A stretch of 3,982 nucleotides of DNA from Escherichia coli (GTDB lineage Bacteria > Pseudomonadota > Gammaproteobacteria > Enterobacterales > Enterobacteriaceae), in the NCBI RefSeq assembly GCF_003334255.1, contig NZ_QOWU01000112.1; one strand, written 5' to 3'. Shown here one piece after another: positions 3,395 through 3,590 of this stretch (the first letter of the stretch is position 1; every line of letters begins with the position of its first letter). A program made the position numbers and the translations under genes. Under the pieces are notes generated by a model that had not been told where the DNA came from, searched no databases, and saw only the letters and a program-made list of their open reading frames with translations.

Positions 3395-3456
3395 TTCTGT
3401 AAATAAAATTTAATCCTTAACCGGATGGATTTCTGCACCCTCAGAACATCAGGAGG

Positions 3457-3472
3457 CCGCCCGAAAGGGCGG
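3457..3472 (+). promoter_or_regulatory. Stable GC hairpin with GAAA tetraloop (CCGCCC-GAAA-GGGCGG) between a perfect SD (AGGAGG 3451-3456) and ATG 3480
   Basis: 6 GC-rich base pairs plus a G-U closing pair (3456/3473) and a GNRA-type loop. No U-tract on either strand. If folded, the SD-to-ATG distance drops from 23 nt to about 7 nt. Confidence 0.4.
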
Positions 3473-3479
3473 TAGTGAA

Positions 3480-3590
3480 ATGCGAAAGTTCAAAATTATT
3501 ATTGAAACGGGAATAGCTGGTGGAGATTTTGAGGATGTATTCGAAGTGGACGATGACGCAACACCTGAGGAAATTCATGACGGAGCATAA
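3480..3590 (+). CDS. Small acidic ORF, 36 aa (MRKFKIIIETGIAGGDFEDVFEVDDDATPEEIHDGA), hypothetical
   Basis: ATG 3480 to TAA 3588-3590, in the SD-hairpin-ATG context. No recognisable domain. An ORF this short is weak evidence alone. Confidence 0.3.
   Translation: MRKFKIIIETGIAGGDFEDVFEVDDDATPEEIHDGA
3516..3523 (+). other. Chi octamer GCTGGTGG
   Basis: Exact match to the E. coli Chi sequence on the plus strand, inside the small ORF. A single occurrence, so functional relevance is unknown. Confidence 0.4.

Follow-up and report, generated by a model that had tools for sequence, protein, structure and literature searches.

A widespread, mobile Shine-Dalgarno-hairpin junction in Escherichia coli prophages and its possible role as a split ribosome binding site

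How might a ribosome initiate at a codon whose only strong Shine-Dalgarno (SD) sequence lies 23 nt upstream? This question is raised by a locus in a 3,982-nt stretch of Escherichia coli DNA (contig NZ_QOWU01000112.1; the whole stretch analyzed is called the window here), in which a perfect AGGAGG is separated from the next ATG by a small hairpin. The first-pass annotation of the window had proposed that folding of this hairpin would set the SD-ATG spacing, as in phage T4 gene 38, and had considered a conditional switch and a boxB-like protein-binding element as other options. On re-reading, the positions it had given for AGGAGG, hairpin and ATG, and the 23-nt gap, were all correct. The SD-hairpin junction, a 22-base unit that we refer to as the cassette, and its immediate surroundings contain the following elements:

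3451-3456, plus strand: AGGAGG Shine-Dalgarno sequence; no other strong SD is accessible to the ATG at 3480
3457-3472, plus strand: hairpin CCGCCC-GAAA-GGGCGG, a 6-bp G-C stem with a GNRA tetraloop (as read from the sequence, CCGCCC at 3457-3462, GAAA at 3463-3466 and GGGCGG at 3467-3472)
3473-3479, plus strand: A-rich 7-nt tail UAGUGAA, from the stem to the start codon
3480-3482, plus strand: start codon ATG
3480-3662, plus strand: DUF7167 family gene, a pseudogene annotated by PGAP as "DUF7167 family protein, internal stop"
3408-3474, plus strand: conserved intergenic block of 67 nt, ending with the SD and hairpin
3408-3450, plus strand: upstream part of that block, with an invariant AUCCUUAACC motif and a 5-bp hairpin

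The hairpin was present in every predicted fold, in pieces ranging from 34 to 211 nt, with stem pair probabilities of 0.99-1.0 in those of 61, 121 and 211 nt, and its stem also appears in the inverted-repeat listing as 6-nt arms that are 100% complementary and 4 nt apart. Its predicted energy is -12.4 kcal/mol with six base pairs and -14.4 kcal/mol with a seventh, G3456-U3473, which is usually added in the folds and consumes the last G of the SD. The 34-nt piece gave z = -3.68, and an equally good fold was found in one of 200 shuffles. With the 16-nt hairpin taken out, the distance from SD to ATG falls from 23 to 7 nt, which agrees with the spacing that had been proposed for the folded RNA. 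The predicted duplex between AGGAGG and the 3' end of 16S rRNA has an energy of -10.3 kcal/mol. The 3' arm of the stem, GGGCGGU, could also pair with 16S rRNA (-8.3 kcal/mol, with a bulge), but this pairing is weaker than that of AGGAGG and the arm is sequestered in the stem; the tail UAGUGAA contains no SD, and its GUGA is only 1 nt from the AUG. The 3' arm and GUGA were ruled out as the true SD by these energies and spacings. The locus combines an SD able to pair with the 3' end of 16S rRNA yet over 15 nt away from its start codon, a stable spacer hairpin of 16-18 nt that leaves an effective spacing inside 5-11 nt, and the lack of any usable SD at a canonical distance before the ATG at 3480, all of which are features of a split TIR.

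Split ribosome binding sites (RBSs) are, to our knowledge, textbook curiosities known from two T4 genes. In the work of Gold 1988, Nivinskas et al. 1999 and Malys and Nivinskas 2009, as reviewed in PMC3014915 and PMC7297116, folding is described as shortening the SD-AUG distance from 22 to 5 nt in gene 38 and from 27 to 11 nt in gene 25; stem-destabilizing mutations are reported there to lower initiation, and probing to confirm the fold. The cassette resembles both T4 cases in its strong SD 22-27 nt from the AUG, its spacer hairpin, its effective spacing of 5-11 nt (23 reduced to 7 here) and its place in a phage polycistronic mRNA, and its hairpin is similar in size to that of gene 38.

A hairpin in such a position might instead be conditional, acting as a switch or thermosensor in which an alternative pairing opens the stem or hides the SD. 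In the alifold consensus the AGGA of the SD has a possible partner in the invariant UCCU at 3414-3417, and CCCUC at 3438-3442 could pair with GAGG; however, these alternatives are no more than 4 bp long and span large loops, and neither appears in the centroid structures. The main stem kept a pair probability of ~1.0 in every piece tested and, at -12 to -14 kcal/mol, will not melt at physiological temperature. Nor was a ligand-binding family matched when the whole window was searched with the Rfam 15 covariance models, which gave no match of any kind up to E = 1. With a hairpin that is ~100% populated and no conserved competing partner beyond the 4-bp pairings, a conditional switch appears extremely improbable, and that earlier suggestion found no support.

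The cassette is intact in the window, but the gene it serves is dead. The open reading frame (ORF) at 3480, which had been described as a small acidic ORF, does start at that position; its 36 codons are, however, what is left of a 60-aa DUF7167 protein that is intact in related phages, and PGAP calls it a pseudogene. The internal stop is a TAA at 3588-3590, where intact copies have AAA, and the original stop, TGA at 3660-3662, is overlapped by the next ORF, whose GTG start is at 3655. An intact 60-aa copy matches Pfam PF23768 (E = 1.2e-14) and phrog_1997. With a cryptic prophage as its setting and a pseudogene as the gene it serves, the cassette has little practical importance in the window. 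DUF7167 homologues of the Klebsiella-phage branch have no hairpin; they have GGAGG, 7 nt and ATG, with a TGATG stop-start overlap. Their spacing is the same as the effective spacing that the E. coli version would have once folded.

The cryptic prophage is of the Qin-like (DicA/DicC) kind, and the window agrees at 100% identity with the copy in E. coli ATCC 8739, W and many other strains. Its other features are, in order:

220-627, minus strand: dicA
711-941: dicC
between dicC and the replication gene: YdaT-like gene
1436-2401: replication-protein ORF, holding five 23-nt iterons (1764-1895)
after the replication gene: DUF977/LygF-like gene
2861-3217: SAM methyltransferase gene, truncated
from the end of the SAM methyltransferase gene to the SD-hairpin feature: ~260 nt with no intact gene
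3' of the SD-hairpin feature: a series of small genes, several broken

The cassette lies 2.7 kb 3' of dicC and the dicA-dicC promoter region, past the replication genes, on the rightward (pR) side. Several minor observations were made on these surroundings. The five direct repeats at 1764-1895, within the ORF at 1436-2401, have a spacing of 23-24 nt and the core GGTCAAAATG / GGTTCAAAA, and look like origin iterons inside an initiator gene, as in lambda O. Genes have decayed on both sides of the feature (2861-3330 and 3640-3982): the SAM methyltransferase frame stops at 3217, with recognizable remnants on to ~3330, and in the identical ATCC 8739 record the genes 3' of DUF7167 bear the label "frameshifted; internal stop". 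Two perfectly complementary 8-nt A+T arms, ATTAAATT ... AATTTAAT (3384-3391 and 3407-3414, with 15 nt between them), form an inverted repeat that is located just 5' of the conserved block and overlaps its start; one of the left mosaic boundaries, 3408, coincides with the right arm.

We gathered copies of the cassette four ways (two IMG/VR pattern scans, two protein-anchored scans, annotated records). Across 142 distinct contexts, the per-position consensus was 85-100% over 3408-3474 and ~50% on both flanks, a figure that is partly circular because the scan patterns fall inside the block. The same upstream block was observed in 75 of 80 DUF7167-anchored loci, a sample independent of the scan patterns. 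Among 5426 complete E. coli genomes, 2212 (~41%) were found to contain the part at 3408-3473, at 2631 places, with up to 4 per genome and never annotated. Searching more broadly for strong-SD / hairpin / ATG arrangements in ~290 phage loci gave 77 distinct ones, 70 of which were the cassette; the other families were just seven scattered singletons. The arrangement in the window is more than a coincidence. Outside Escherichia, a scan of one genome per species found the block only in Citrobacter braakii, apart from two contigs of GTDB "Collinsella sp." MAGs (L308 and L312) that carry the E. coli prophage block, the latter matching the window across the ~120 nt compared. The Collinsella-binned contigs are probably E. 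coli phage DNA, that is, binning contamination. Five further matches from the species scan were unrelated terminators, in which AGGAGG pairs with CCUCCU. In K-12 the block is absent, and the CPS-53 region has no hairpin. We found no mention of the hairpin 16-mer or of "DUF7167" in the literature searched, and a preprint on the Pas sRNA concerns late-region loci and is not relevant to the cassette. The cassette is a widespread, unannotated and mobile SD-hairpin junction.

Within the upstream part of the block, a 5-bp hairpin, GAGGG-N9-CCCUC, is found at 3424-3442. In the window copy a change of G3426 to T (GATGG) weakens this hairpin and creates an ATG at 3425, which opens a 16-codon ORF running to the TAG at 3473-3475 that is absent in other copies. 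An upstream ORF was rejected as part of the cassette, since the ATG is private to the mutated copy in the window and other copies have GGAGGG. An apparent compensatory change in the same hairpin was a U-U mismatch once the alignment was read column by column. The sequence UCCUUA is common to the motif AUCCUUAACC and the 16S 3' end, and at 7 of 8 bases the motif agrees with the rrn boxA core. When three contexts were scanned for promoter and terminator consensus sites, none came up in or beside the block.

What follows the cassette differs greatly between copies. The start codon is an ATG 6-9 nt past the stem, with no SD of its own, in at least five unrelated gene families:

DUF7167
DUF4014, 72 aa
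MxELT (MTELT/MAELT) family, 242-288 aa
MQEIK family, 159-299 aa
MLTLK ORF, 43 aa

The SD-less tails of the five are UAGUGAA, UAAUGAAAA, UAAGAA, UAACAAAUA and AACAGAUA. In a sixth family, MEITK (174 aa), the tail is 11 nt long and supplies a GGAG of its own, and there are two types of junction with no ATG, one in which a convergent gene abuts the cassette and one in which an inserted QueH-like gene starts ~70 nt further on. These differences allow the SD to be compared between copies that serve an SD-less gene and copies that do not. In the SD-unbiased samples the SD hexamer was AGGAGG in 74 of 97 distinct contexts. Counting only distinct loci, and excluding those fetched with a pattern that demanded AGGAGG, we found the GGAG core intact in 63 of the 64 copies serving an SD-less ATG versus 7 of the 11 non-serving copies (Fisher p = 0.0013; p = 0.0008 in a wider sample), a result that is suggestive rather than proof because the copies are few, phylogenetically related and pattern-selected. 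The four breaks of GGAG are four different mutations (AGGAAA, AGGAAG, AGTAGG and AGGATG). The pattern of retention suggests, and fits, selection on an SD that is 22-25 nt from the start codon, and selection at such a distance would imply that the folded geometry is needed.

From these data we infer that ribosomes use the distant SD, and that they would need the hairpin to fold to do so. In the mechanism we propose, the 16-18-nt GNRA hairpin would fold on the long early-operon transcript and set AGGAGG ~7 nt from the AUG; the 30S subunit would then pair with the SD and take the start codon into its P site, with the hairpin looped out. The 67-nt block would in this way provide the sole SD for the accessory gene to its right. 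The reading we prefer, to which we give about an even chance, is that the cassette is a constitutive split RBS of the T4 gene 38/25 kind and, in addition, a recombination linker.

The same comparison of junctions brings in a role of another kind. The cassette persists before a gene with its own SD and beside convergent genes, which indicates that translation is not the sole reason for its being kept or carried along. It might be a module junction whose RNA stabilizes against 3' exonucleases, forms a processing or insulating structure or acts as a weak terminator, with translation independent of the fold and initiation proceeding via the A-rich unstructured tail, or with the SD as a distant standby site. 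Consistent with this are the A-rich tails, the cassettes kept where the ATG is absent or before the gene with its own GGAG, and the junctions with convergent genes, where the SD has become AGGAAA or AGGAAG, giving a terminator-like U-rich run on the other strand. In the window, however, there is no U-tract on either strand and no terminator call: directly past the hairpin come UAGUGAAAUG on the plus strand and, on the minus strand, CCUCCUGAUG, neither with a U-run, and the scan for intrinsic terminators was silent, so that an intrinsic terminator was rejected here. The stem is too short for RNase III, processing between SD and AUG would part the two, and it is specifically in copies with no other SD that the GGAG core is retained. 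We consider a role of this kind, with translation independent of the fold, unlikely, but worth keeping in mind.

The two junction types without an ATG showed further peculiarities. In the cassettes that face a convergent gene of 189-191 aa (L211, L215, L087, L103 and L310), two lineages have AGGAAA or AGGAAG in place of the SD; this change puts UUUCCU or CUUCCU directly past the hairpin on the other strand, and the hairpin may thus have been co-opted as a terminator there. In three loci (L249, L250 and L263), an inserted ORF of ~224 aa with a CCAPCSGE motif, which looks like an epoxyqueuosine reductase QueH (DUF208), is found ~70 nt 3' of the cassette, past a non-coding stretch, and the SD is AGGAGA.

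If the hairpin has a function as RNA, its variants should bear on it. We observed at least 18 variants of the stem-loop among the copies, in samples that are redundant and partly pattern-selected overall, the unbiased sampling of the hairpin having covered copies with a dependent gene. Each of the five C positions in the 5' arm showed C-to-U changes that preserve pairing as G-U, and the commonest variants include CCGCCU, CCGUCC and CCGUCU, which are of this type. On the other strand these variants are A-C mismatches that break the DNA palindrome, which points to the plus-strand RNA. Two base pairs have changed on both sides: 3459/3470 from G-C to A-U, with the A-C intermediate also present, and 3462/3467 from C-G to A-U, with both intermediates present. 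All of the loop variants (GGCA, GATA, AAAA and TAAA) have 4 nt. Variants that break a pair are not rare, for example CGGCCC, GGGCAG, GAGCGG, UGGCGG and GGACGG; about one fifth of the DUF7167 loci have weakened stems of -4 to -6 kcal/mol, and in two natural variants, which are recombinants, the 5' arm or the SD is missing entirely.

Counts of these changes were not decisive. By events, in a parsimony count of the listed variants, pair-preserving transitions related to pair-breaking ones as ~8 to 6, and C-to-U cells to G-to-A cells as 11 to 5 among distinct haplotypes (binomial p ~0.1), a ratio that we judged too weak to use. In the covariation test 92% of cells were paired, and the observed values were reached by 64-170 of 500 shuffles. 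The hairpin is thermodynamically certain and conserved, and its covariation is not significant; the stem may be conserved just through recency, because the sequences are 92% identical per column. The structured-spacer RBS of the first-pass annotation is plausible: the geometry, the T4 precedent and the comparative fit (the SD-less families, the retention of GGAG and the Klebsiella spacing) speak indirectly in its favor, and the covariation does not add to them.

The borders of the cassette proved to be borders of homology also. BLAST matches in E. coli genomes and phages break at 3449 and at 3480; some span only 3380/3408-3480 and then run into another gene, and others span only 3449-3665 with a different upstream sequence. 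On its left side the joint breaks at 3449/3450 and on its right side at 3473-3475, homology between different downstream modules ending in the tail, and the minimal unit common to the joints is the SD and hairpin, ~24 nt. Stx-type phages contain two copies of the cassette ~1.07 kb apart. In phage ArgO145 the first copy has a different upstream sequence and is followed by DUF7167, and the second has the upstream block and is followed by DUF4014; L034-type phages keep both upstream sequences in place but have the two downstream modules the other way round. The ArgO145 copies are in the leftward early operon, between exo/recT/kil and int, and the orientation of the cassette always follows that of the operon (rightward in the window, leftward in ArgO145). 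The cassette occurs in Rac-like, Qin-like and Stx phages, which have unrelated immunity regions. As the block is near-identical across many lambdoid prophages, it would offer a short homology patch for the exchange of accessory modules.

Exchange of this kind also raises the question of whether the hairpin has any function as RNA, or is a passive palindrome at a hot spot for recombination or insertion, in a young block homogenized by prophage exchange. The modules swapped demonstrably at the block would be expected under that reading, as would the lack of significant covariation, the mismatched and truncated variants, the breakpoints that in some cases fall inside the hairpin, and the confinement of the block to Escherichia and one Citrobacter genome. 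It leaves unexplained, however, why SD-less dependent genes all start 6-9 nt past the stem and why SD decay is limited to copies that can do without it. The common C-to-T variants of the 5' arm break the symmetry of the DNA and keep the pairing of the RNA, and the cassette is near-identical even beside a DUF7167 copy whose protein identity has fallen to 70%. In our judgment a hairpin with no RNA function is quite improbable.

The distribution of the cassette also bears on whether the hairpin binds a phage or host protein, either for antitermination of the boxB kind or as a site for a translational repressor between SD and AUG. Lambda boxB is GCCCUGAAAAAGGGC, and the rrn boxA core is UCUUUAAC. 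The GNRA-capped G-C stem GCCC-GAAA-GGGC resembles the former, and the conserved upstream UCCUUAAC matches 7 of 8 bases of the latter; like lambda nut, the cassette places a small G-C hairpin, capped by a GNRA-like loop, within an early operon. Unlike nut, it mismatches in loop length, boxA, position relative to promoters and phage specificity. It has a tetraloop (4-nt GAAA on a 6-7-bp stem) instead of the boxB pentaloop on a stem of ~5 bp. The boxA-like UCCUUAAC (3414-3421) is 35 nt upstream, with another hairpin between, and has no GC of GCUCUUUA, where a nut site would have boxA (CGCUCUUA / GCUCUUUAACAA) ~8-10 nt upstream of the hairpin. A nut site would also be located just 3' of the early promoters and be specific for the phage's own N; the cassette is 2.7 kb from the dicA/dicC promoter region, and is found in both early operons and in phages with unrelated immunity and antitermination modules. 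Rfam, moreover, finds nothing. A protein-binding site is very unlikely on these grounds, and the boxB-type element put forward at the outset found no support in them.

Returning to the reading as a split RBS and recombination linker, the cassette differs from T4 genes 38 and 25 in several respects. The T4 structures are one junction each and have been mutation-tested and probed, whereas the cassette is known from sequence, serves at least five unrelated genes, is repeated within genomes, coincides with mosaic breakpoints and has temperate lambdoid phages as its hosts. A second independent case of a split RBS would show that it is a reusable solution and not an oddity. It would also improve the prediction of start sites and expression for prophage accessory genes, because gene finders and RBS calculators penalize a 23-nt spacing.

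As a linker, the cassette is comparable to two systems. In the PeSLs of T4-type phages, a strong sigma-70 promoter is combined with a stem-loop that acts as a terminator (Arbiol et al. 2010, PMC2839356; PMC4122927). Like PeSLs, the cassette is a short conserved stem-loop unit among small nonessential genes, with recombination between copies that shuffles modules, and it is repeated between genes with the modules shuffled (ArgO145 versus L034-type phages; up to 4 places per genome). Unlike them it has no promoter or terminator consensus in the three contexts, and its functional parts would be the SD and the spacer hairpin. Lambdoid phage mosaicism has been linked to conserved boundary or "linker" sequences and to homeologous recombination (Clark et al. 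2001 and Juhala et al. 2000, both cited through PMC2327257; Martinsohn et al. 2008, PMC2327257), and its borders have been described as generally lacking a particular signal (PMC2327257). The cassette is like these linkers in that modules are exchanged at gene boundaries through short shared sequences; it is unlike them in being a defined signal of 24-67 nt, one with a likely function in expression. It gives lambdoid mosaic borders a concrete and testable sequence signal; for such borders the literature mostly has none to report (PMC2327257). A bolder reading, that the 67-nt block is a dedicated gene-cassette junction combining a ribosome-loading RNA leader with a homology patch at which phage recombinases of the Red or RecET type capture and exchange accessory genes, we hold to be speculative and distinctly unlikely. 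If it is true, temperate coliphages would have a promoter-less system that is integron-like or PeSL-like.

A second sequence of this kind was noted in the course of these comparisons. The Klebsiella-type DUF7167 homologues (L126 and L288-L303) have another conserved junction, GCTGGCATCAAGGTGGAGGCTGAGTGATG, in the 30 nt before the DUF7167 start, and it encodes the C-terminus of whichever gene is upstream. The upstream sequences diverge just 5' of GCTGGCATCAAGGTGGAGGCTGAGTGATG, which makes it look like a second boundary sequence.
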